DNA of 43,477 nt from Candidatus Staskawiczbacteria bacterium (lineage in GTDB: Bacteria > Patescibacteriota > Minisyncoccia > Minisyncoccales > Staskawiczbacteraceae): positions 1 through 43,477 of the forward strand of contig CAINWR010000071.1 of assembly GCA_903854535.1 (NCBI GenBank), written 5' to 3'. How positions within the stretch are numbered: position 1 is the first letter of the stretch; each line of letters opens with the position of its first letter. A program made the translations under genes and the position numbers. The notes below the pieces were generated by a model, which saw nothing but the letters and a program-made list of their open reading frames with translations, was not told the origin of the DNA and ran no database searches. Of this stretch, positions 3,647 through 41,501 are shown in pieces.

Positions 3647-3706
3647 TTTTAAAAAAGCCAGGGGTTTTAAAGCTTCTGGTTTTTTGTTATTATAAAGAAA
3701 AATACT

Positions 3707-3783
3707 GCTCGACAATAAATTTTTTCTGCGCCGAGAGCCTCTCTACGGGGCACCCTCGTGCTCGAAAAAATTAATTGTCTCGC
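3707..3783. repeat. Palindromic element (family C) in the SOD gene leader
   Basis: AT-rich outer arms (cgacaataaattttttc / gaaaaaattaattgtctcg) enclose a GC-rich core. It shares the 19-mer gcctctctacggggcaccc with 15543-15561. Confidence 0.8.
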
Positions 3784-4470: not shown

Positions 4471-4526
4471 ATGATATTATAATATATGGTTTTTAATTCC
4501 CGTTCTCATGATTCGGAGTTTTGTTA

Positions 4527-4724
4527 ATGAGTAAAAAAAAGTCAGGACAAATTTTCCAGAAAGAAAAATTTGATCAAGCCAAGGAAGAGCTTGTTGGCGA
4601 GTCAATTGGATTGGAGGTGGCCCTCAAACATTGGCCAGTTGATGGCGTTCCGCAAGGAGAAGACCGTGGGGATCGGGTACCGTTCTTCACGGTTGATGGG
4701 GTCGATGAATTAATCGACGAATAG
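4527..4724 (+). CDS. Small acidic hypothetical protein (65 aa), GC-richer orphan
   Basis: ATG at 4527 is preceded by GGAG 8 nt upstream. GC-rich composition, and a T8 run follows at about 4773-4780. No motif recognised. Confidence 0.45.
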   Translation: MSKKKSGQIFQKEKFDQAKEELVGESIGLEVALKHWPVDGVPQGEDRGDRVPFFTVDGVDELIDE

Positions 4725-4837
4725 ATTATGCTCGTGGTTGATTGCCCAAACGCAAGGATGTGTGAGGGCTTTTTTTTGTGCTTGATTTTAGGGATTTAAA
4801 ATAGTAATATTAAATAATTAACTTTTAATAAAAATTT

Positions 4838-6331
4838 ATGTCAACAATTGAGGAATTAAGAAAAGTTCGTTTGGAAAAATTAAAGGCATTAGAACATGCT
4901 GGGATTTTACCTTATCCTGCAAAAACCAAAAGAACTCATAGAATTTGCGAAGCTTTAGAAAATTTTGATAAATTATCAATTCCAGATAAAGATGGAGAAT
5001 TGCAAGAAATAGTTTTGGCTGGAAGAATTATGGCGCAACGTGGGCATGGTGGAGCAACATTTTTAGATATTTATGATGGTTCGACTTCGCTCACTGCAGG
5101 TGGCAAAATTCAAGTAATTATTAAAGAAGATAAAGTTGGGCCAGCAGGATACAAATTTTTTATAGATAATTTTGATATTGCGGATTTTGTAGAAATTAAA
5201 GGAACTTTGTTTACAACTAAAAGAGGCGAAAAAACCATTGAAGCTACAGATTATAAAATGCTTTCTAAGGCACTTTTGCCTTTGCCAGAAAAATGGCATG
5301 GGCTTGAAAATGTAGAAGAAAAATTAAGAAAAAGATATTTAGATATTTTGTTTAATCCAGAAGTAAGGGAAATGGTAGAGAAAAGAAGTATTTTTTGGCA
5401 ATCAATGCGTGAATTTTTACTTAAAAAAGGTTTTATGGAAGTAGAAACTCCGGTGCTTGAATCTACTCCTGGGGGAGCAGATGCAAGGCCTTTTACAACA
5501 CATCATAATGCAATGGATATGGATGTTTATTTGCGAATTTCTATGGGAGAACTTTGGCAGAAAAAATTAATGGTAGCTGGTTTTGAAAAAGTTTTTGAAA
5601 TTGGTAGACAATTTAGAAATGAAGGAATGGATGCAGAGCACTTGCAAGATTACACGCAAATGGAATTTTATTGGGCTTATGCAGATTACCAGCAAGGTAT
5701 GGAATTTATTGAAGAAATGTATAAATATATAATAGAAAAAACTTTTGGTACTCTTAAATTTAAAATTAAGGGATTTGATGTAGATTTTTCTCGCAAATGG
5801 GAAAAGTATGATTATGTTTCTACAATTGCAAAATACACAAAAATAAATATTCAAGAAGCTAGTTTATCTGAAATGGAAAAAGCTTTGCAAAAATTAAAAA
5901 TTGATTATGACAAAAATGGTTTTAACATAACAAGAGCCATAGATAATTTGTGGAAATATTGCAGGAAAAACATTGGAGGTCCGGGATTCTTAATTAATGT
6001 ACCAGTAACTATGGAGCCTTTGGCTAAAAGAATGGAGAGCCACAATGATTTAGTACAAAGATTTCAAGTAATTATTGGTGGTTCAGAAAATGGTAAAGGC
6101 TTTTCTGAATTAAATGATCCAATTGACCAAGCAGAAAGATTTGCAGATCAACAAAAATTAAGAGATTCTGGTGATGATGAAGCGCAAAGATTTGATCAAG
6201 ATTTTGTGGAGGCCTTAGAACATGGAATGCCACCAACTTGTGGTTTTGGAGTTTCAGAAAGATTGTTTGCATTTTTAATGGATAAGCCAGCCCGCGAATG
6301 CCAAATTTTCCCATTAATGCGCCCCCGCTGA
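4838..6331 (+). CDS. lysS: Lysine--tRNA ligase, class II
   Basis: OB-fold N-domain and class II core with FRNEGMDAEHLQDYTQMEFY (motif 2) and a GFGVSERL C-terminal motif. Confidence 0.95.
   Translation: MSTIEELRKVRLEKLKALEHAGILPYPAKTKRTHRICEALENFDKLSIPDKDGELQEIVLAGRIMAQRGHGGATFLDIYDGSTSLTAGGKIQVIIKEDKVGPAGYKFFIDNFDIADFVEIKGTLFTTKRGEKTIEATDYKMLSKALLPLPEKWHGLENVEEKLRKRYLDILFNPEVREMVEKRSIFWQSMREFLLKKGFMEVETPVLESTPGGADARPFTTHHNAMDMDVYLRISMGELWQKKLMVAGFEKVFEIGRQFRNEGMDAEHLQDYTQMEFYWAYADYQQGMEFIEEMYKYIIEKTFGTLKFKIKGFDVDFSRKWEKYDYVSTIAKYTKINIQEASLSEMEKALQKLKIDYDKNGFNITRAIDNLWKYCRKNIGGPGFLINVPVTMEPLAKRMESHNDLVQRFQVIIGGSENGKGFSELNDPIDQAERFADQQKLRDSGDDEAQRFDQDFVEALEHGMPPTCGFGVSERLFAFLMDKPARECQIFPLMRPR
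5081..5101. repeat. GC-rich 21-nt in-frame patch in lysS
   Basis: tcgacttcgctcactgcaggt encodes STSLTAG, within the otherwise conserved FLDIYDG-GKIQV stretch. Confidence 0.5.
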
Positions 6332-6338
6332 GCGGGGG
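6322..6338 (+). other. GC hairpin cccccgc-tga-gcggggg with the lysS stop codon as its loop
   Basis: Read directly. A second imperfect hairpin follows at 6343-6363, and no T-run follows either one. Confidence 0.7.
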
Positions 6339-6380
6339 TAATGGCACGCTTAGCGTGTCGCCCAAAAAATTAATTCATAG

Positions 6381-6405
6381 AAAAAGAGCAATGGGGTATT
6401 GCTCT
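6381..6405 (-). terminator. Terminator of orphan gene 6715-6425
   Basis: Minus strand agagcaat-acccc-attgctct followed by a T5 run. Confidence 0.65.
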
Positions 6406-6424
6406 GCGTCTGCCTTTAGTGCGA

Positions 6425-6715
6425 TTAGAATGGGAAAAGGTCTTTTTCACAAACCCAACTTCTTCGCTGACGGCCCTTTATTCCAGAATAAACGACACAA
6501 TAGATAGGTTCGTGAGTCCATCTCCTATACCTGATTTTAGCAATAAATCCAACTTCGAGTTGTTGGCTTATCGCTGTGTATCTTGTATCAGGGCGAAACC
6601 TAACCTTGTTGTATACTTGAAATTTTGCTGTTTCGCCTTGAGCTTCACACTTTTCGATCTTTTCAATAGTCTTGGATGTGGCCCCGCAAATTTCGCATTC
6701 ATAAGAGGTTTTCAT
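6425..6715 (-). CDS. Hypothetical protein (96 aa) with an N-terminal CxxC, GC-richer orphan
   Basis: ORF on the opposite strand to its neighbours, with a CEICG motif. A minus-strand terminator lies at 6405-6381. Composition is intermediate in GC. Confidence 0.5.
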   Translation of the reverse strand: MKTSYECEICGATSKTIEKIEKCEAQGETAKFQVYNKVRFRPDTRYTAISQQLEVGFIAKIRYRRWTHEPIYCVVYSGIKGRQRRSWVCEKDLFPF

Positions 6716-8619: not shown

Positions 8620-8842
8620 GCCGTTTTTGTTTGTATGAAAAAAGGAGAAAGCGTCCTTTACAAATGGACATTCTTTCTCCCTGACTAGAAGCGAGATCGC
8701 TGTCGGTGAAGTGGCCCTATGCCACCTCGTTTTTTTCTGCGATCGCACAGCGCTAAGCTCTCTAGTCCTAATAATATATTTGCATATTTTAGTAAAAAAG
8801 TCAACAGTTTACGATATTTGCAAAGTTTGGTATTATAAAATA

Positions 8843-8905
8843 AGCGTTTAGCGTTTAGCGTTTAGCGTTTAGTTACTAAACCCTAGAACCTATACCCTAG
8901 ACCCT
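8843..8905. repeat. Heptad-repeat hairpin (family A): (gcgttta)x4, loop, then (ctaNacc)x4
   Basis: Read directly. The arms pair over ~29 positions with a C-C mismatch every 7 nt. On the sense strand 7 of 8 heptads begin with TAG or TAA. It ends 7 nt before the serS ATG. Confidence 0.85.
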
Positions 8906-8911
8906 CAAGAA

Positions 8912-10216
8912 ATGTTAGATTTAAATTTTATTAGAGAAAACCCTGATGTTGTGAAAAAAGCTTGCGAAAATAAAAGCATCAAAGTAGATGTAGATGCTGT
9001 TTTATTTTTAGACAAACAAAAACGAGCTTTAATGGTTGAAGTTGAAAATTTAAAAGCCGAGCAAAACAAACTTACAAAAGCTGGCAAGGGTGATGTAGAT
9101 AGAGAACAGCTTATTTTGCAAGCCAAAGAACTCAAAGAAAGAATAAAAGCAAAAGAGCCAGAACTTGAAAAAATAGATGAAGATTTGAAAACTTTACTTT
9201 TGAAATTACCAAATATTCCTACAGATGATGTGCCAGTAGGGCATAGCGAAGAGGAAAATGTGATAATTAAAACTGTAGGTAAAAAGCCAGTTTTTGATTT
9301 TGAACCTAAGAGCCATTGGCAATTAGCTGAGTCTTTGGATTTGATAGATAAAGAAAGAGCATCAAAAGTTGCAGGTTCAAGGTTTGCATATTTAAAAGGG
9401 GATTTGGTTATTTTGCAATTAGCAATGTTTAGATTTGCTTTAGATGTTTTATGTAGTGAAAAAACTTTGGCTCAAATTGCTAAAAAGGCAGGACTTAAAG
9501 TAAGTACCAAAGCTTTTGTGCCAGTACTTCCACCATTTATGATAAAAACAGAACCTTATTCTGCAATGGATAGACTAGAACCCAAAGAAGAAAGATATAA
9601 AATAGAAGGTGAAGATTTGTGGCTTCAGGGATCAGCAGAACATGTTTTGGGAACTATGCATATGAATGAAATATTATCAGAAGATGTTTTTCCAATTCGT
9701 TATGCAGGTTATGCTACAAGTTTTAGAAAAGAAGCTGGTACTTATGGTAAGGATATGGAAGGAATTATTAGAATGCATCAGTTTGATAAACTTGAAATGG
9801 AAAGTTTGACTACTGCTGAGAATTCTTTGCAAGAACACTTTTTTATGGTGGCTATTCAAGAATATTTAATGGGTCAATTGGGATTACCTTATGAAGTAAT
9901 GTTAAAATGTACTTTTGATATTGGTAAACCGAATGCAAGAGGTGTGGATATAAATGTATGGCTTCCAGGTCAAAATAAATATAGGGAAACTCACACAGCA
10001 GATTATATGACAGATTATCAGGCCCGTAGATTGCAAACAAAAGTTCGTAGAAAAAATGGTAAAGTGGAATTGGTGCACACTAATGATGCTACTGCTTTAT
10101 CGCAACGTCCATTGATTGCAATTTTGGAAAATTATCAACAAAAAGACGGAAGTATATTGGTGCCAAAAGTTTTGCAAAAATACACAGGATTTAAAATAAT
10201 AAAAGCAAAGAAATAA
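8912..10216 (+). CDS. serS: Serine--tRNA ligase
   Basis: N-terminal coiled-coil arm and class II core with FRKEAGTYGKDMEGIIRMHQFDKLE. Confidence 0.95.
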   Translation: MLDLNFIRENPDVVKKACENKSIKVDVDAVLFLDKQKRALMVEVENLKAEQNKLTKAGKGDVDREQLILQAKELKERIKAKEPELEKIDEDLKTLLLKLPNIPTDDVPVGHSEEENVIIKTVGKKPVFDFEPKSHWQLAESLDLIDKERASKVAGSRFAYLKGDLVILQLAMFRFALDVLCSEKTLAQIAKKAGLKVSTKAFVPVLPPFMIKTEPYSAMDRLEPKEERYKIEGEDLWLQGSAEHVLGTMHMNEILSEDVFPIRYAGYATSFRKEAGTYGKDMEGIIRMHQFDKLEMESLTTAENSLQEHFFMVAIQEYLMGQLGLPYEVMLKCTFDIGKPNARGVDINVWLPGQNKYRETHTADYMTDYQARRLQTKVRRKNGKVELVHTNDATALSQRPLIAILENYQQKDGSILVPKVLQKYTGFKIIKAKK

Positions 10217-15510: not shown

Positions 15511-15589
15511 GCTTGCCAAATCAAATTTTTCTGCGCGCCACGGCCTCTCTACGGGGCACCCGCGTGCTCGAAAAATTTATTTGGCTCGC
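15511..15589. repeat. Palindromic element (family C) in the ftsQ leader
   Basis: Outer arms gccaaatcaaattttt / aaaaatttatttggc. Same ttttctgcgc...gcctctctacggggcaccc...cgtgctcgaaaaa core as the SOD gene copy. Confidence 0.8.
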
Positions 15590-15600
15590 TTTCTTGATAA

Positions 15601-16419
15601 TTGTCATATAGAAAGCATCACGTAAAATCTAAAATAAAGAAATTAAAGCCGAAAAAATCTATTTTAAAAAATAAGTGGTTTTGGTATATAGCTTTAATTG
15701 TGATATTGTTTTTTGCAATTTCATATTTTTTATTATTTGCAAAATTTTTTAGTATAAATAATATTAATATTTCTGGAAATAAAGATATATCTACTGAAGA
15801 TATTTTTAAAATATCAAATAATAAAGTTAATAAGAAACTTTTTTCTTTAGGAAGTTGGCAAGTTATTTCAAGAAGTTTTTTTCTAACAAATCCAAATTAT
15901 ATTAAAGAAGAAATTGTTAATCAATTTCCTAAAGTAAATGAGATATTGGTTCAAAAAAAAATGTTTCAAACTTTGGAGATAGAAATTAAGGAGAGAGAGG
16001 CAAAAGCTATTTTTTGTAATAATCAGTTAAATAAAGATTGTTATTTTGTAGATAAAAGTGGAATTGCTTTTGATTTTTTGGAAACTTTACCAACAGGATT
16101 TTTTATAATAAGAGATGATAAAGAGGCTGTAGCTGGAAAAGAGATTGTTAATCAAAATATAATTGATGGTATTTTAAAGGCAAAACAAATATTAAAAGAT
16201 AATTATAATATAGACATTGAAGATGTTTTAATTACAACCCCACTTAGATTAAATATCAAAACCTCAGAAAATTGGCAGGTTTATTTAACAACTGATTCTG
16301 ATTTAGATACACAAATTACAAAACTGGATTTGTTGTTAAAGGAAGAGATTACAGAATCAGTTCGTAAAAAATTGCAGTATATCGATTTACGCTTTAAAGA
16401 CAGAGCGTATTATAAGTAG
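15601..16419 (+). CDS. ftsQ: FtsQ/DivIB-like cell division protein (TM anchor plus POTRA)
   Basis: Basic N-terminus and a single TM helix, followed by an INNINISGNKDISTEDI POTRA-like start. TTG start taken from the ORF track. Confidence 0.6.
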   Translation: MSYRKHHVKSKIKKLKPKKSILKNKWFWYIALIVILFFAISYFLLFAKFFSINNINISGNKDISTEDIFKISNNKVNKKLFSLGSWQVISRSFFLTNPNYIKEEIVNQFPKVNEILVQKKMFQTLEIEIKEREAKAIFCNNQLNKDCYFVDKSGIAFDFLETLPTGFFIIRDDKEAVAGKEIVNQNIIDGILKAKQILKDNYNIDIEDVLITTPLRLNIKTSENWQVYLTTDSDLDTQITKLDLLLKEEITESVRKKLQYIDLRFKDRAYYK

Positions 16420-16447
16420 GTTGTAGTTTGTAGGTTGTAGTGAGTAG
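16417..16447 (+). repeat. Five TAG triplets at exact 7-nt spacing, the first being the ftsQ stop codon
   Basis: tag gttg tag tttg tag gttg tag tgag tag, with TAG at 16417, 16424, 16431, 16438 and 16445. Confidence 0.9.
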
Positions 16448-16450
16448 CCG

Positions 16451-16547
16451 TCATTGCGAGGAAGTTGCAACTGACGAAGCAATCTCAAAGGTTGTTTTGT
16501 AATCAGCAGCTGGGATTGCTTCGGGTATTGCCATACCCTCGCAATGA
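16451..16547. repeat. Nested inverted repeat (tcattgcgagg...cctcgcaatga enclosing cgaagcaatc...gattgcttcg)
   Basis: Outer 11-bp arms at 16451-16461 and 16537-16547. Inner 10-bp arms at 16475-16484 and 16514-16523. Confidence 0.85.
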
Positions 16548-16570
16548 TAATTAAAATCGTGCAAGAGAAA

Positions 16571-16644: not shown

Positions 16645-17208
16645 CTACTTTTTCTCGTACTTTGCTAAGAGCGTGTCCATACGCTCTTTGGCCGGGCCAA
16701 ATTGTTTTTTGAGGTCAACGTACTCGTCGTACGTGACCTCGGAAATACTGCCGTCAGCGTTATGGAACCCCTGAACGGCAAATGGCCAGTTAATGCAGGA
16801 GATTTTCCCCTGCGCCTCGCACAGCTCCCAGACTTCCTTGCCGGGACTTTTTTTTCGGTCCAGACGGAACAAAATGTCCGTTGACACCGAGTCGAAACTG
16901 TCAATTTTGCGGTCCATGATCGGCGTCGGGTCGAGCACGAAGCTCAGTGCCGACGAGTACCTGTGTTGGTACTCAAGCTCAAGTTTTTCGAGGCGCTTTT
17001 TGTAAGACTCGTACTCGCCTTGCCCAAACTTGGGCTGAGCGAGATTGAACACTACCCATGCCGTGTCACGGTCCACCTGGCGGTCGTATTCGCAGACCTG
17101 CGATTCGAACCGCCACTGGGCGAATGAGCGGTATGCCCATTTCCCAGGAAAGAAAACGATTCCCATCAACCCAGCGATCAGAATGGCTTGGAAAAAACGT
17201 GCCTTCAT
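16645..17208 (-). CDS. Membrane-anchored hypothetical protein (187 aa), GC-rich orphan
   Basis: ATG 17208 is preceded by GGGAG. One N-terminal TM helix (FFQAILIAGLMGIVFF). By eye about half G+C. It has its own consensus promoter and terminator. Confidence 0.6.
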   Translation of the reverse strand: MKARFFQAILIAGLMGIVFFPGKWAYRSFAQWRFESQVCEYDRQVDRDTAWVVFNLAQPKFGQGEYESYKKRLEKLELEYQHRYSSALSFVLDPTPIMDRKIDSFDSVSTDILFRLDRKKSPGKEVWELCEAQGKISCINWPFAVQGFHNADGSISEVTYDEYVDLKKQFGPAKERMDTLLAKYEKK

Positions 17209-17270
17209 TGAAAGTCTCCCGTGTAAAGGTGCTTGGGCAGGGGACAACGTCCCCATTCACCCATATATTA

Positions 17271-17345: not shown

Positions 17346-17418
17346 GTTGAAAGTTTATCAAGTTTTTAAAGTTTATCAAGTCGACTTTATAACTTGTAAC
17401 TTTATAACTTGATAAACC
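17346..17418. repeat. AT-rich tandem-repeat hairpin (family B) ending just before the adk ATG
   Basis: Left arm has repeated aaagttt/atcaagt units, centre is gtcgac, and the right arm has complementary ataactt units. gtttatcaagtt (17353-17364) pairs perfectly with aacttgataaac (17406-17417). Confidence 0.8.
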
Positions 17419-19394: not shown

Positions 19395-19436
19395 GTTGTA
19401 ATTTTTTCTTGGTTTGTGGTAAAATTAATTATAATT

Positions 19437-19504
19437 AGCGTCTAGAGTATAGCTTCTAGGGTTTAGTCATTTTTTACTAAACGCTAGACGCTAAACGCTA
19501 AACC
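19437..19504. repeat. Heptad-repeat hairpin (family A), inverted orientation
   Basis: agcgtctagagtatagcttctagggtttag / loop / ctaaacgctagacgctaaacgctaaacc. Close to the reverse complement of 8843-8905. It ends 3 nt before the tpiA ATG. Confidence 0.85.
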
Positions 19505-19507
19505 TTT

Positions 19508-20248
19508 ATGAAATCAATAATTATTGCAAATTGGAAATGCAATCCAAATAGTTTAAAAGAAGCAAAAAAATTATTTAGTGAAGTTAATAAAAAAGCCAAA
19601 GCTAAAAATACAGATGTAGTAGTTTGTGCACCTTTTGTTTACTTAGGTTTACTTAAAGGTAAAAATTTAGGAGCTCAGAATGTTTGTTTTGAGGAAAAAG
19701 GAGCTTTTACGGGCGAGGTTTCAACTTTGATGCTTAAAGATTTGGGAGTTGAATATGTTATAATTGGACACTCAGAAAGAAGAAAATATTTTAATGAAAA
19801 CAATTTAGATATTAATAAGAAAATTAAAATTTTATTAGAAGCAAAATTAAAACCAATTTTATGTATAGGTGAAACTAAGCAAGAATTTGAGGCGCACTTA
19901 AAGCCCGAAGTAATTGAAACTCAACTTACAGAAGCTTTAAAAGATATAAAGAAAGAAGATGTTAAAAATGTAATTATTGTATATGAGCCAGTTTGGGCAA
20001 TCAGTAGTAATGGAGGTGAAAATTGTTCTGTAGATGAGACAATGACATCAGTTGTTTTTATTAGAAAAATTATTTCAGAATTATATAATAGAGATACATC
20101 AGATATTGTTAAGGTGCTTTATGGGGGAAGTGTAAATAGTTTTAATTCTGCAGATTATATTAAGAACGCAAGAGTTGATGGTCTTTTAGTTGGCGCGTCT
20201 TCGCTTGATCTTGAAGAATTTTCATTGATTGTGAAGTCTGTTGAATAA
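19508..20248 (+). CDS. tpiA: Triosephosphate isomerase
   Basis: ANWKCN, GHSERR and YEPVWAI motifs. Confidence 0.95.
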   Translation: MKSIIIANWKCNPNSLKEAKKLFSEVNKKAKAKNTDVVVCAPFVYLGLLKGKNLGAQNVCFEEKGAFTGEVSTLMLKDLGVEYVIIGHSERRKYFNENNLDINKKIKILLEAKLKPILCIGETKQEFEAHLKPEVIETQLTEALKDIKKEDVKNVIIVYEPVWAISSNGGENCSVDETMTSVVFIRKIISELYNRDTSDIVKVLYGGSVNSFNSADYIKNARVDGLLVGASSLDLEEFSLIVKSVE

Positions 20249-25030: not shown

Positions 25031-25102
25031 AAAAAGTTTGTAAAGTTATAAAGTTTGTAAAGTCGAACTTGATAACATTATAAACTTTTAAACTTTATAA
25101 CT
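25031..25102. repeat. Family B hairpin upstream of rpsM
   Basis: aaaagtttgtaaagttataaagtttgtaaagtcgaacttgataacattataaacttttaaactttataactt. Same architecture and centre (gtcgaac). It ends 6 nt before the ATG. Confidence 0.8.
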
Positions 25103-25108
25103 TATATT

Positions 25109-31082: not shown

Positions 31083-31202
31083 GATATTACTTTGATATAC
31101 TGCCTTAATCACACTTTTCAATTTGGCAAGTGTCAAATGAGTGTGTTGTTCATTTATTAGCTCAGAAAGGGTTCGCCCGGAGAGCTAGAAAGGTGGTTGG
31201 TA

Positions 31203-31850
31203 ATGTATTCGTCCATCAACTTAGTTGATTTTGTAACTGGAAGAGCGAAAGTTACGCGAGGGGAAATCTCTACCGAGGTATGGTGTGAGATACTCCAAGA
31301 GGTATTGTGGCAAATCAAGCCTAGTTTGAAGTACTTGGATGGTTTCAAACCTCTTGCTCAGTTGCTCGATGGCAAGGAAGAGTTTATGAGCGGACATGGC
31401 AGATTTGGCATGTCGGATGATGTAGTGCCCAGTTTTAAGGGTATGGGCTTTGATGAGAGGACAAAGTTTTTCCCCTTGGCTTTGTGGCAGTATCCGAAGC
31501 AAGAGGCAAGTTGTGAAGAGAAATGTGGTGCCTTGTTGTTAGCTTTGGGAGAAAATGAGGGTAGTTTAGCTATTTTGAATCTTTCGCGCTTTAGGCAAGG
31601 CGACCACTATGCAGTGTGTGCTTGCTCTTTGGTAACCACTACTTCGGTACAAGGCATTACGAGCGTGTTAGAACCGAATGGGAAAGAGGTGAGTGGATTA
31701 ATTGATAAAGGATTTGTCTATGTGTCGTGCATATTAGACAGACTCTACCTTGCCTTTTATTCCACCGTAGATAAACGGGAAAAATATTTGGTCTCCATGC
31801 GTGCAAGTTGCGACTGGTTGCAACGGGCATATCAAAGGTGTTCGGGTTAA
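31203..31850 (+). CDS. Cys-rich hypothetical protein (215 aa), GC-rich orphan
   Basis: AAGGTGG lies 6 nt before ATG 31203. GC-rich composition. Flanked by stem-loop terminators at 31053-31082 and 31884-31925. Confidence 0.55.
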   Translation: MYSSINLVDFVTGRAKVTRGEISTEVWCEILQEVLWQIKPSLKYLDGFKPLAQLLDGKEEFMSGHGRFGMSDDVVPSFKGMGFDERTKFFPLALWQYPKQEASCEEKCGALLLALGENEGSLAILNLSRFRQGDHYAVCACSLVTTTSVQGITSVLEPNGKEVSGLIDKGFVYVSCILDRLYLAFYSTVDKREKYLVSMRASCDWLQRAYQRCSG

Positions 31851-35276: not shown

Positions 35277-35279
35277 TTA

Positions 35280-35352
35280 GTTATAAAGTTAAAAAGTTAT
35301 AAAGTTTATAAAGCCGACTTTATAACATTACAAACTTTAAACTTGATAACTT
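35280..35352. repeat. Family B hairpin upstream of mreB
   Basis: gttataaagttaaaaagttataaagtttataaagccgactttataacattacaaactttaaacttgataactt. It ends 3 nt before the ATG. Confidence 0.8.
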
Positions 35353-35355
35353 CGA

Positions 35356-36363
35356 ATGTTTAATAATAAAATTGCTATAGATTTGGGAACTTGTAATTCT
35401 ATTGTGTATGTTAAAGGTAAAGGAATTGTTTTATATGAACCATCGGTGGTTGCTGTTTCTTTGAGTGAAAATAAAATCTTGGCAGTAGGAGAGCAGGCAA
35501 AAGATATGATAGGTAGAACTCCTTCAGATATAAAAGTGTATAGACCTCTTAAAGATGGTGTTATTGCAGATTATAGAGTTACTCAGGCTATGATTAGGCA
35601 TTTTATAAGTAAAACTACAAGTAATTTTAAAATTTTTAAACCTGAGCTTGTAATTTCAGTTCCAGCTGGTATTACAAGCACAGAAAGAAGGGCTGTGATT
35701 GAAGCTGCGTTGTCAGCTGGAGCAAAGCAGGCTTACGTTGCCAAAGAGCCTATTTTAGCTGCTATTGGAGCTGGGGTGCCTATTAATTCTTGCTCAGGGC
35801 ACATGATAGTAAATATTGGCGGAGGTACCTCTGAGGTTGCTGTAATTTCTTTAGGGGGCATTGTGGCTTGTCATTCAGCTAGAGTTGCAGGAGATAAAAT
35901 TGATATTGCAATTGCTGAATACATAAGGAAAAAATATAATTTAGCCATAGGTACGCAGTCAGCAGAAGAAATTAAAATAAGAATAGGGACAGCTCTGCCA
36001 CAAAAAGAGCCTAAATATTTAGAAATTCAAGGTAGAGATTTAATATTGGGATTGCCAAGGAATATTAAAATTTCAAGTAATGAAATTTGTGAAGGAATTT
36101 CCGATGTTTTAGGTGAAATTATGCAATCTGTAAAACAAGTATTAGCTCAAACTCCTCCAGAATTATCAGCTGATATTATGAATAAAGGTATTATTGTTTC
36201 AGGTGGAGGAGCTTTGTTGGCTAGAATAAATGAACTTATTGCTCAAACCACTGGCGTACCTTGTTTTGTAGCAGAAGAGCCATTATTATGTGTTGTAAAA
36301 GGCACGGGAATAGTATTAGAACACTTAGAAGAATACAAGAAAGTTGTAATGTCTAAAAAGTAG
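35356..36363 (+). CDS. mreB: Rod-shape-determining actin homologue MreB
   Basis: IAIDLGTCNSIVY, NIGGGTSEVAV and VSGGGALL phosphate and adenosine motifs. Confidence 0.95.
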   Translation: MFNNKIAIDLGTCNSIVYVKGKGIVLYEPSVVAVSLSENKILAVGEQAKDMIGRTPSDIKVYRPLKDGVIADYRVTQAMIRHFISKTTSNFKIFKPELVISVPAGITSTERRAVIEAALSAGAKQAYVAKEPILAAIGAGVPINSCSGHMIVNIGGGTSEVAVISLGGIVACHSARVAGDKIDIAIAEYIRKKYNLAIGTQSAEEIKIRIGTALPQKEPKYLEIQGRDLILGLPRNIKISSNEICEGISDVLGEIMQSVKQVLAQTPPELSADIMNKGIIVSGGGALLARINELIAQTTGVPCFVAEEPLLCVVKGTGIVLEHLEEYKKVVMSKK

Positions 36364-36391
36364 GGTTTAGGGTAAAGGGTCTAGGGTCTAG
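36361..36391 (+). repeat. TAG-heptad array starting with the mreB stop codon; also a G3N4 x4 motif
   Basis: tagggtt tagggta aagggtc tagggtc tag, with TAG at 36361, 36368, 36382 and 36389. GGG tracts at 36363, 36370, 36377 and 36384. Confidence 0.9.
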
Positions 36392-40406: not shown

Positions 40407-40625
40407 ATGTTAAGCCAACTCTTCAAACAACTCGTAGGAGATAGGAGAAGTGTCGTGACTAAAGCGCAAATGTATATTGGGATGAGTTTGGCGGTAGTGT
40501 GCTCCCTCCAGACATATTTTGGTCTCGAGAATCATTCCAGCTCGTTACTGGCGGGCGCGGTCTTTTCGGGACTGATATCCATCACCAACTTTTTTTGTGG
40601 CGTTGGCTTCTATCTGAAGTCGTGA
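40407..40625 (+). CDS. Small two-TM membrane protein (72 aa), GC-rich orphan
   Basis: Two hydrophobic helices. GAGGG lies upstream. A strong terminator lies at 40657-40689. The start codon sits in the loop of a 7-bp hairpin. Confidence 0.45.
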   Translation: MLSQLFKQLVGDRRSVVTKAQMYIGMSLAVVCSLQTYFGLENHSSSLLAGAVFSGLISITNFFCGVGFYLKS

Positions 40626-40656
40626 ATAGCGACCATGGCGCATTGGCGTCGGCTCG

Positions 40657-40689
40657 GCTCGCGGTGTGATTTTCACTGCGAGCTTTTTT
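40657..40689 (+). terminator. Terminator after the small membrane-protein gene
   Basis: gctcgcggtg-tgatttt-cactgcgagc followed by a T6 run. Confidence 0.75.
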
Positions 40690-40723
40690 ATTATATAATT
40701 TTTTCGTGTAAGGTTTCATCATC

Positions 40724-40751
40724 TGTGTAAGGTCTCACCTTACACAATCTA
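40724..40751. repeat. REP-like hairpin, copy 1 (10-bp perfect stem, ctc loop)
   Basis: tgtgtaaggt/ctc/accttacaca followed by atcta. It overlaps the transposase stop codon. Confidence 0.85.
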
Positions 40752-41459
40752 ATCTATGAACAATTTATCGTTTTCAGCGCGGGTTTTTCCATTTAAAATC
40801 ATTTTGGAATATTCTTTATATTTTTCAACATCATCAAAAATTTCTCCAAGAACTCCCTTGTTAATTATAACAGATTCCCTTTCTTTTAGATATTCTTTAT
40901 TTGTGCACCAATCATATTTGTTGGTAAAATTTAGTGCTTTATTAAAATCTATTAAACCACTTTCTTTTAAATTAGGCTCTAAAATTTGTGCAGGATTTAT
41001 AATATTAACATAAAATAATAAATACTCTAATTGCTCTTGGCTCTCAGAAACAACAGATTTAAATACGCCCTCAAATAAGGCACCTTTTCGTTCATATTTT
41101 TTATTAAAATACATGGAGTATCCTGTTGTAAACTTTTGCATAAATTTTGAAACGCCACCAGGTTTTATTTCCTCTAAAATTAAATGAAAGTGATTTGGCA
41201 TTAAGCAATAGGCTAAAATATTCACAAGTAAGTTTCTTTCTTTATTTTTTAAAAATTTTTTAACAGTATTAAAAGTTGTTTTTCCATAAATTCTATTAGT
41301 TTGCCATAATGCATTGAAGGTAGAATTTTCGTCATTAAATGCAAACAAGCCCAATAAAAACCTCCAACGATCATAATCGTTCATAAAAATATTCCGTTTG
41401 TCCACGCCTCTGTTAAAAATATGGATGAAATCACCAACTGCAAATTGTTTTCTATTCAT
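40749..41459 (-). CDS. IS200/IS605-type Y1 (HUH) transposase, RAYT-like
   Basis: CLMPNHFHLIL HUH motif and a YFNKKYERKGALFEGVFKS Tyr region. Flanked by identical hairpin repeats. Confidence 0.8.
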   Translation of the reverse strand: MNRKQFAVGDFIHIFNRGVDKRNIFMNDYDRWRFLLGLFAFNDENSTFNALWQTNRIYGKTTFNTVKKFLKNKERNLLVNILAYCLMPNHFHLILEEIKPGGVSKFMQKFTTGYSMYFNKKYERKGALFEGVFKSVVSESQEQLEYLLFYVNIINPAQILEPNLKESGLIDFNKALNFTNKYDWCTNKEYLKERESVIINKGVLGEIFDDVEKYKEYSKMILNGKTRAENDKLFID

Positions 41460-41473
41460 TTTGATTTTGATTA

Positions 41474-41501
41474 TGTGTAAGGTCTCACCTTACACAATCT
41501 A
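41474..41501. repeat. REP-like hairpin, copy 2
   Basis: Identical 28-mer to 40724-40751. Confidence 0.85.

Follow-up and report, generated by a model that had tools for sequence, protein, structure and literature searches.

The stretch of DNA analysed here (the window; 43,477 nucleotides, contig CAINWR010000071.1) carries housekeeping genes of a bacterium of the candidate phyla radiation (CPR, Parcubacteria) and has a G+C content of 31%. The nearest named relatives of its SerS protein are from Candidatus Staskawiczbacteria and Parcubacteria. Almost none of the genes in the window has a Shine-Dalgarno motif, and TAA accounts for 33 of the 44 stop codons. Directly in front of two genes, serS and tpiA, are long hairpins assembled from tandem units of seven nucleotides, designated A1 and A2, respectively. 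These hairpins, their origin and their possible function are the subject of this report. The scope is the 43-kb window with two full copies of the element. The two sites are composed as follows:

8808 to 8836, plus strand: promoter-like sequence TTTACG-17-TGgTATTAT upstream of A1; the predicted transcript start, about 8843, is at the start of the hairpin
8844 to 8872, plus strand: 5' arm of A1, (GCGTTTA)x4 + G, a perfect heptad array according to the repeat finder TRF and to folding
8873 to 8875, plus strand: loop of A1, TTA, 3 nt; a length of 3 (modulo 7) preserves the TA phase across the turn
8876 to 8904, plus strand: 3' arm of A1, CTAAACC CTAGAAC CTATACC CTAGACC C, a degenerate complement of the 5' arm
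19396 to 19425, plus strand: promoter-like sequence TTGTAA-18-TGgTAAAAT upstream of A2
19436 to 19466, plus strand: 5' arm of A2, TAGCGTC TAGAGTA TAGCTTC TAGGGTT TAG, a reverse-complementary copy of the element's degenerate arm
19467 to 19476, plus strand: loop of A2, 10 nt; by alignment the A1 loop plus one degenerated heptad
19477 to 19504, plus strand: 3' arm of A2, CTAAACG CTAGACG CTAAACG CTAAACC, the reverse complement of a near-perfect GCGTYTA arm

Sequence and folding agree on the presence of both hairpins, at 8844-8904 and 19436-19504, as had been claimed in the original prediction. Seven nucleotides (tcaagaa) separate A1 from the serS ATG at 8912 and three (ttt) separate A2 from the tpiA ATG at 19508. 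TRF reports period 7 at 8843-8872 (4.3 copies, 100% matches), 8876-8905, 19477-19503, 16416-16440 and 36361-36391. The arrays of the window consist of at least three head-to-tail 7-nt units, which is what defines heptanucleotide repeats. The units are GCGTTTA, CTANACC, TAGGTTG and TAGGGTY, and every array is located between open reading frames (ORFs). The intergenic location was considered as an informative property and rejected because it is trivial: such an array closes all frames on both strands.

In the predicted fold each heptad of the A1 and A2 stems contributes six paired bases and one 1x1 mismatch, confirming the predicted recurrence of a mismatch once per 7 nt. The description of this mismatch as mostly C-C is correct at site 1; the bases found there at site 2 are C, G, T and G. 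Folding energies for A1 are -16.3 kcal/mol on the plus strand (z -3.3) and -23.8 kcal/mol on the minus strand; for A2 they are -25.6 (z -4.5) and -27.9 kcal/mol, respectively. The AUG and the preceding 3-7 nt are unpaired in the predicted fold. As the promoter-like sites end at 8836 and 19425, the predicted transcript start and the first base of the hairpin would be no more than a few to about 10 nt apart in both cases. Between the upstream gene and site 1 is a terminator-like stem (8711-8735); upstream of A2 a stem with a T-run is apparent from the sequence. The hairpins themselves were not called as intrinsic terminators in a terminator scan; their tails, tcaagaaATG and tttATG, have no T-run. 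Rfam had no match in the window at gathering score; with E relaxed to <=1 the hairpins were still without a match, and a tRNA scan found nothing there. Between the serS promoter and a cytidylyltransferase-like gene, the related contig L001 (about 4575-4760) shares with the window a conserved GC-rich stretch (8620-8800) that includes the 8711-8735 stem; it may be a small RNA and has no Rfam match.

A1 on the plus strand aligns end to end with A2 on the minus strand, i.e., the two copies are oppositely oriented as predicted. The degenerate arms are identical at 25 of 28 positions. All three differences are at the periodic mismatch position, and the loops differ by exactly one heptad. The odd units CTAAACC, CTAGAAS, CTATACY and CTAGACS are common to both degenerate arms and come in the same order. 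Since such shared irregular units would not arise from independent slippage at two sites, the hairpin has been copied as a whole. The A1 sequence is identical in an independent assembly of the same species (L140), thus it is not an assembly artefact.

The closest relatives show what the two sites look like without the element. In L001, whose SerS is 89% identical, the promoter-like sequence is kept as TTTACG-17-TGgTATGAT; the leader behind it, AT-rich and about 24 nt long, is plain and has no hairpin. In L160 (TpiA 74% identical, syntenic from ftsQ to rpsM) the promoter-like TTGTAA-18-TGgTAAAAT before tpiA is kept, again with a plain leader. L160 has neither A2 nor a single-arm array found after ftsQ in the window, nor the hairpins B1 and B2 of a second family, all described below; L159 likewise is devoid of B2. 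The absence in relatives of the four hairpins that can be compared (A1, A2, B1, B2) indicates recent insertions. The corresponding spacers in the relatives measure only about 20-30 nt, and this explains why the hairpins end so close to start codons. Only in this lineage, then, did the short 5' leaders of serS and tpiA receive a copy of the element. Among the roles originally suggested a selfish palindromic repeat fits best, given two collinear copies and comparable sites in the nearest relatives that are free of the hairpin.

In other relatives the serS site is occupied differently. In L008 it contains another heptad hairpin, which is AT-rich, and in L002 and L004 a GC-rich hairpin. The latter, ATTCCCGyTTTCrCGGGAAT, precedes or overlaps the serS start codon (L002:8260-8288, L004:9965-10003); in L002 the serS ATG forms part of the GC hairpin stem. 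A metagenome scan with the degenerate arm CTAAACCCTAGAANCTATAC returned no further copies of the element. It yielded only degenerate (CCCTAAA)n arrays of about 50% GC (L129-L139), which we read as eukaryotic telomere repeats of the plant or algal type; such matches are returned because the CCCTAAA-type units of the degenerate arm equal the plant/algal telomere heptamer.

Could the hairpins have been retained by selection for their structure alone, either protecting the 5' end against decay or setting the initiation rate through a free AUG region? Stem-loops at the 5' end are established mRNA stabilisers, e.g., in the ompA, ermC and aprE leaders, and a role as 5' mRNA structure appears plausible. 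The position next to the predicted transcript start, the unpaired AUG with the 3-7 nt before it and the near absence of Shine-Dalgarno motifs in the window are in line with this. Further, four of five relatives with an intergenic gap before serS carry a hairpin of unrelated sequence right before the ATG. Yet L001 and L160 use the same promoters without any hairpin, and the stability of the copies ranges widely, from -16 to -28 kcal/mol. In the scan across phyla reported below, 18 of 89 classifiable intergenic contexts among the matches listed are between convergent genes. Selection for structure alone is therefore, in our estimation, an unlikely explanation, though one to be taken seriously.

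The most eye-catching property of the hairpins is the regular recurrence of stop codons. At site 1 the plus strand has TAG at 8849, 8856, 8863 and 8870, TAA at 8877, TAG at 8884, TAT at 8891 and TAG at 8898, i.e., seven stops in eight heptads, exactly as originally counted. At site 2 five TAGs at 19436-19464 are followed by a miss at 19471 and by TAA, TAG, TAA and TAA at 19478-19499; this amounts to nine of ten where the earlier count was eight of nine. The arrays are far above chance frequency: TAG-N4 x4 matches seven times in the window (0.00 expected) and TAR-N4 x4 15 times (0.65 expected). Runs of three or more TAG occur at period 7 only and at none of the periods 5, 6, 8, 9 or 10. The serS ATG is indeed in phase with the heptads (8849 + 63 = 8912), but this is a one-in-seven coincidence.

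The stops had been considered a property of the gene-sense strand. This did not hold up, as the minus strand is just as regular, with stops at 8848-8899 (eight units) and at 19477-19500. The reason is simple. The heptad has TAG, the partner arm has CTA and the TA core is self-complementary, consequently TA plus a purine recurs every 7 nt in each arm and on both strands. Because the period of 7 is coprime to 3, a stop within the heptad closes all three frames, and because the loops of 3 and 10 nt are 3 modulo 7 in length, the TA phase runs on across the turn. Hairpins of other phyla have loops of 8 or 15 nt (counted by eye), and there the phase is lost. Thus, the periodic mismatches and stops follow from the way the element is built, and the periodic stops are most likely a by-product of the palindrome and not a device.

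This bears directly on the proposal of an all-frame translational insulator, in which the stops would end translation entering from upstream before the true start codon is reached. Sense-strand TAG or TAA every 7 nt does close all three frames, and across phyla some arrays among the matches listed supply the stop codon of the upstream ORF. However, at both sites a promoter-like sequence lies between the hairpin and the upstream gene, together with the terminator-like stem in the case of serS and the T-run stem in the case of tpiA. No upstream translation would then reach the hairpins in the predicted transcripts, and an insulator is not needed. In addition, the antisense strand has stops of the same regularity, four to nine stops are far above need, and periodic stops are missing from those hairpins of 8-9-nt units which are intercistronic. 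We consider an insulator hardly credible.

How widespread are such arrays? A scan for (GCGTYTA)3 in a collection of species-representative genomes returned at least 120 stretches from many phyla, including at least 11 CPR genomes. The following figures hold for the matches listed, which comprise Pseudomonadota, Bacteroidota, Omnitrophota, Acidobacteriota, Armatimonadota and CPR, many of them at contig ends. An inverted partner within 110 nt is present at 23 of 103 GCGTYTA arrays and in none of 103 control windows. Dispersed copies with common imperfections exist inside single genomes (two in L103 and two in L041, one of the latter just before rpmJ). In 818 kb of such loci TRF identified 337 arrays at period 7; the counts for periods 6 and 8 were 41 and 61, respectively. 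The period-7 arrays with at least three copies include 154 that are not the seed, representing about 115 different heptamers. In viral contigs GCGTYTA has three hits and two permuted heptamers have seven and six; in this comparison GCGTYTA is not a special heptamer. Together, A1 and A2 belong to a widespread, poorly understood class of bacterial heptanucleotide tandem repeats.

Two candidate general properties of this class were rejected. TAG is not the general conserved core of degenerate period-7 arrays: across phyla it ties with AGT/ACT, and it stands out only within the lineage of the window. Adjacency to start codons across phyla was equally discarded, as about 13 of 54 distances are <=12 nt (by eye) compared with about nine expected from an artefact of the ORF caller, which assigns as start the first start codon behind the stop supplied by the array. 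Start-codon adjacency is verified in the window and in L041 only.

The window further contains two single-arm TAG arrays:

16417 to 16447, plus strand: TAGGTTG TAGTTTG TAGGTTG TAGTGAG TAG, starting with the stop codon of the FtsQ-like gene; a long GC-rich hairpin is next
36361 to 36391, plus strand: TAGGGTT TAGGGTA AAGGGTC TAGGGTC TAG, starting with the mreB stop codon

The second array is followed by a stem-loop with a T-run, resembling an intrinsic terminator. The array after ftsQ has a counterpart with different spacers in L002 and is absent in L160, L008, L004, L006 and L007. The TAG-N4 arrays of L002 (7331-7420, 17164-17260) are each followed by a hairpin. The loops of these two L002 hairpins share a mini-palindrome, CCACGATCGTGG, which suggests another repeat family beside the heptad arrays. 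The hairpin after the ftsQ array (16449-16549) is a long GC-rich nested palindrome, gTCATTGCGAGG...CCTCGCAATGA. A related sequence, gtcattgcgagg...gaagcaatc, is found before serS in L004 (about 9895-9995) and in the Nitrospinota contig L015 (about 5110-5140). This palindrome may be another dispersed element common to groundwater bacteria.

Spaced TAG triplets call to mind RNA-binding proteins. TRAP, the ring protein of the Bacillus trp leader, reads 9-11 (G/U)AG triplets with 2-3-nt spacers. The arrays described here differ, with four to five TAG triplets, spacers of exactly 4 nt and no TAG runs at period 5 or 6, and the TRAP-like binding invoked in the original prediction is not borne out. 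By analogy, HutP would be the better precedent for a 7-nt spacing of TAG: it reads three XAG at a 7-nt period per face, and two such sites flank a terminator stem (PMC2425495). The resemblance to the HutP sites of the Bacillus hut terminator comprises UAG triplets 7 nt apart in two groups astride a stem. The differences are that each HutP site has three XAG, that the linker measures 12-17 nt, that the terminator is GC-rich and that A and G are required (PMC2425495). Here the loops are 3 and 10 nt long, a terminator tail is missing and the 3' arm is mostly UAA, so that only the 5' arms fit.

By analogy with HutP, the (UAG-N4)n arm may be a platform for an oligomeric RNA-binding protein. Such a protein, sitting on the emerging 5' arm, would block the hairpin and so alter translation or, at the arrays that follow stop codons, termination. 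The identical spacing, the retention of TAG in the arrays after ftsQ, the hairpins that follow each array at 16417, 36361, L002:7331 and L002:17164, and the TAG arm being the 5' arm in 19 of 23 hairpins among the matches listed all speak for this. Nevertheless, we judge it quite improbable. The 44 window proteins include no member of the HutP, TRAP or other candidate families; HutP needs A and G, for which the 3' arms with their UAA and UAU units are unsuited; and the elements are absent at the same genes in relatives. Moreover, TAG is not uniquely conserved in degenerate period-7 arrays across phyla, nor is the heptamer commoner than permuted ones in viral contigs.

A DNA-binding protein is another option. 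The omega repressor of plasmid pSM19035 binds heptad arrays, one heptad per dimer, and the four direct plus four inverted heptads after the -10 box could similarly be an operator with one repressor dimer per heptad. In favour of this, the heptads are contiguous 7-bp units, some direct and some inverted, and they directly follow promoter-like sites. Yet no ribbon-helix-helix or similar protein was seen in the window, the single-arm arrays are placed after stop codons and not at promoters, arrays across phyla occupy every kind of intergenic context (among the matches listed), and in relatives the hairpins are missing at the same promoters. An operator is very unlikely.

A second family of hairpins, family B, is also present in the window:

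17351 to 17417: B1, family B hairpin before adk
25032 to 25103: B2, family B hairpin between rpmJ and rpsM
35279 to 35350: B3, family B hairpin between murA and mreB, not compared with relatives
2651 to 2684: half copy of family B inside an RluA-like gene

Family B elements are about 70 nt long and consist of 8-9-nt tandem units with a 5' arm of AAGTTTATN and a 3' arm of TAACTTKA. All three hairpins have one orientation. Between their ends and the ATGs of adk, rpsM and mreB there are 3-7 nt, and the folding energies are -15 to -23 kcal/mol. Three of 27 pairs are changed on both sides, a figure from only three sequences whose alignment is ambiguous on account of the tandem arms.

The window itself offers a candidate for mobilisation. 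The gene at 40749-41459 on the minus strand matches the Pfam family Y1_Tnp with 38 bits, above the cutoff, and weakly matches the model of the REP-associated tyrosine transposase (RAYT) with 26.5 bits. REP denotes repetitive extragenic palindromes; these and the bacterial interspersed mosaic elements (BIMEs), together with the RAYT transposases, were reportedly treated by Nunvar in 2010 and Ton-Hoang in 2012. There are similarities: REP/BIME sequences are short imperfect intergenic palindromes in both orientations that are transcribed as stem-loops, and the window has a hairpin-flanked Y1 transposase. REP/BIME palindromes number tens to hundreds per genome; the heptad element is represented by two full copies in the 43 kb analysed. 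The differences are that REP stems have no heptad substructure and that REPs carry a GT[AG]G head. At the foot of A1 and A2 no GT[AG]G is present, A1 being preceded by aaaataa and A2 by tataat; GTAG occurs only inside the single-arm array 16416-16447.

Are the heptad hairpins single-stranded DNA substrates of this Y1 (HUH) transposase, copied in the manner of REP/RAYT? The heptad hairpins behave as dispersed copies and the transposase gene sits between two identical hairpins. But the latter are a different palindrome with a 10-bp stem, TGTGTAAGGTctcACCTTACACA, and not heptads. The homologues in L161 and L162 are flanked by the TGTGTAAGGTctcACCTTACACA-type hairpin with compensatory stem changes, and never by heptads. 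Further, the NCBIfam score of 26.5 is far under the cutoff of 80, and the A hairpins have no GT[AG]G head. We regard copying by this enzyme as highly improbable. The transposase region (40723-41497) is situated between an AddA-like helicase-nuclease gene and two PD-(D/E)XK nuclease genes. CPR genomes commonly encode Y1 homologues of about 238 aa, and the contigs concerned are often only about 1 kb long.

The closest known systems include prokaryotic heptanucleotide repeats. The cyanobacterial STRR sequences reportedly described by Mazel in 1990 are said to be among them. According to the citing papers heptanucleotides exceed all other long simple-sequence repeats of prokaryotes in abundance, and polymerase slippage has been proposed for them (Mrazek 2007, as cited in PMC4679880, PMC4692102). 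The agreement with the present arrays extends to the head-to-tail 7-nt units, the intergenic location, the multitude of heptamers per genome and the strong excess of period 7 over 6 or 8. With respect to variability the window arrays are absent or different in relatives, yet 100% identical among contigs of the same species. Unlike in heptanucleotide repeats, two complementary arrays here make one hairpin which is dispersed as a unit, and the host is a small CPR genome, from a group outside those surveys.

Xanthomonas and Nostoc have hundreds of heptamer arrays, GGGAATC and GGGGAYT, some as inverted pairs (PMC4692102). They are intergenic like those reported here, comprise 2-26 units, perfect or heterogeneous, and vary in length and sequence between close relatives; pairs on plus and minus strands could form stem-loops or cruciforms (PMC4692102). 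They differ in being G-rich, in having been studied as quadruplex formers and in carrying no stop codon, and inverted pairs are one class of arrangement in that study whereas here the inverted pair is the element itself (PMC4692102). In lineages where ribosome-binding sites are few, TAACTGA heptamers precede start codons by only a few nucleotides (PMC4679880). These repeats of marine Beggiatoaceae, cyanobacteria and Bacteroidetes share with ours the stop-bearing heptamers near start codons, those of ribosomal protein genes included, and the patchy distribution (PMC4679880). In contrast, they are almost only direct repeats of another unit sequence, with one inverted case and no predicted structure (PMC4679880). 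The nearer look-alike of TAACTGA is the 8-nt 3' unit of family B, TAACTTGA. A literal sequence search of the literature found no paper with the A1 or A2 array sequences.

From these observations we conclude that the hairpins are probably two copies of one dispersed palindromic heptanucleotide repeat of about 63 nt, with at most generic effects on mRNA. The element consists of two successive arrays, one of GCGTTTA heptads and a degenerate one of the complementary heptad. Slippage during replication, 7 nt at a time, may let arrays grow and keep them uniform, an inverted copy of the array would create the palindrome, and a base change spreading through one arm would leave a mismatch every 7 nt. 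The hairpin would be transcribed as an imperfect stem-loop at the 5' end, leaving 3-7 nt free before the AUG. Rather than controlling a particular gene, it would then influence mRNA stability or the rate of initiation in a generic way, if at all.

Several points weigh against a neutral dispersed repeat. Only two full copies are visible, in 43 kb, and neither a target-site duplication nor a mobilising enzyme was identified; miniature inverted-repeat transposable elements (MITEs) have terminal inverted repeats and a target-site duplication, here the whole element is an inverted repeat, and the empty sites in relatives are too diverged for a target-site duplication to be recognisable. The contigs of the same species (L140-L142) are 100% identical to the window, with no copy-number variation seen. 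All five window hairpins end 3-7 nt before verified housekeeping start codons in a setting with almost no Shine-Dalgarno motif. This adjacency could mean selection, though ancestral spacers of about 20-30 nt leave little other room. The comparison with permuted heptamers covers viral contigs only and not bacterial genomes. In the arrays after ftsQ of the window and of L002 all five TAGs are kept while the spacers differ. The inverted partner is 3' of the GCGTYTA arm in 19 and 5' of it in four hairpins; in a palindrome with the partner on the 3' side the TAG arm comes first on both strands. Where the neighbouring genes are co-directional, (CTARACG)n is on the transcript in 39 cases and (GCGTYTA)n in 17, polarity and strand counts both referring to the matches listed. 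A neutral slippage model does not predict the single-arm arrays that start with stop codons and precede hairpins, the conserved TAG, the 19:4 polarity or the 39:17 strand bias, and for this reason we keep a modest probability on binding by a protein.

Some further features of the window were noted in passing. GC-rich islands in this 31% G+C genome are at 4501-4800, 6301-6600, 31201-31800 and 40501-40800. Public assemblies show no gene call in the segment 6332-6800, which separates lysS-like and aspS/asnS-like genes by about 470 nt; it is GC-rich at its start, and a 129-aa ORF with a GTG start there looks spurious. A conserved hypothetical protein of 203 aa is encoded at 16645-17256 on the minus strand. 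It is 64% identical to its L160 counterpart, its coding stretch has 48-55% G+C and it has no Pfam or NCBIfam match. A GC-rich motif of about 45 nt, aaattttttctgcgcNNNgagNcctctctacggggcaccc, is present in two copies (3706-3757, 15525-15575) upstream of sodA-like and FtsQ-like genes.

What does a dispersed heptanucleotide palindrome add to the biology of these organisms? It demonstrates that two complementary arrays can form one palindromic unit which is copied to new sites, that such units enter the leaders of essential genes in very small CPR genomes, and that, among the matches listed, the hairpins have a preferred polarity across phyla. A bolder proposal, which we consider a long shot, is that heptad hairpins and (UAG-N4)n arrays are a regulatory device common to CPR and other bacteria that do without Shine-Dalgarno initiation. 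Equally doubtful is its molecular side, a ring- or chain-forming RNA-binding protein with one heptad per subunit, either of HutP-like geometry or a cold-shock-domain protein. A cold-shock-domain protein binds about 7 nt. Binding to the nascent 5' arm might open a stem which, left closed, holds back initiation or promotes termination, a step to which we assign the same low probability. If true, the device would explain the 7-nt period, the conserved TAG and the polarity with the TAG arm first (19 of 23 among the matches listed). Should polarity and conserved TAG indeed reflect a binding protein, a new layer of gene control would emerge in organisms without Shine-Dalgarno initiation. If no such protein exists, the hairpins would be a clear case of repeat dynamics generating patterns, i.e., periodic stops and mismatches, which have the appearance of design.

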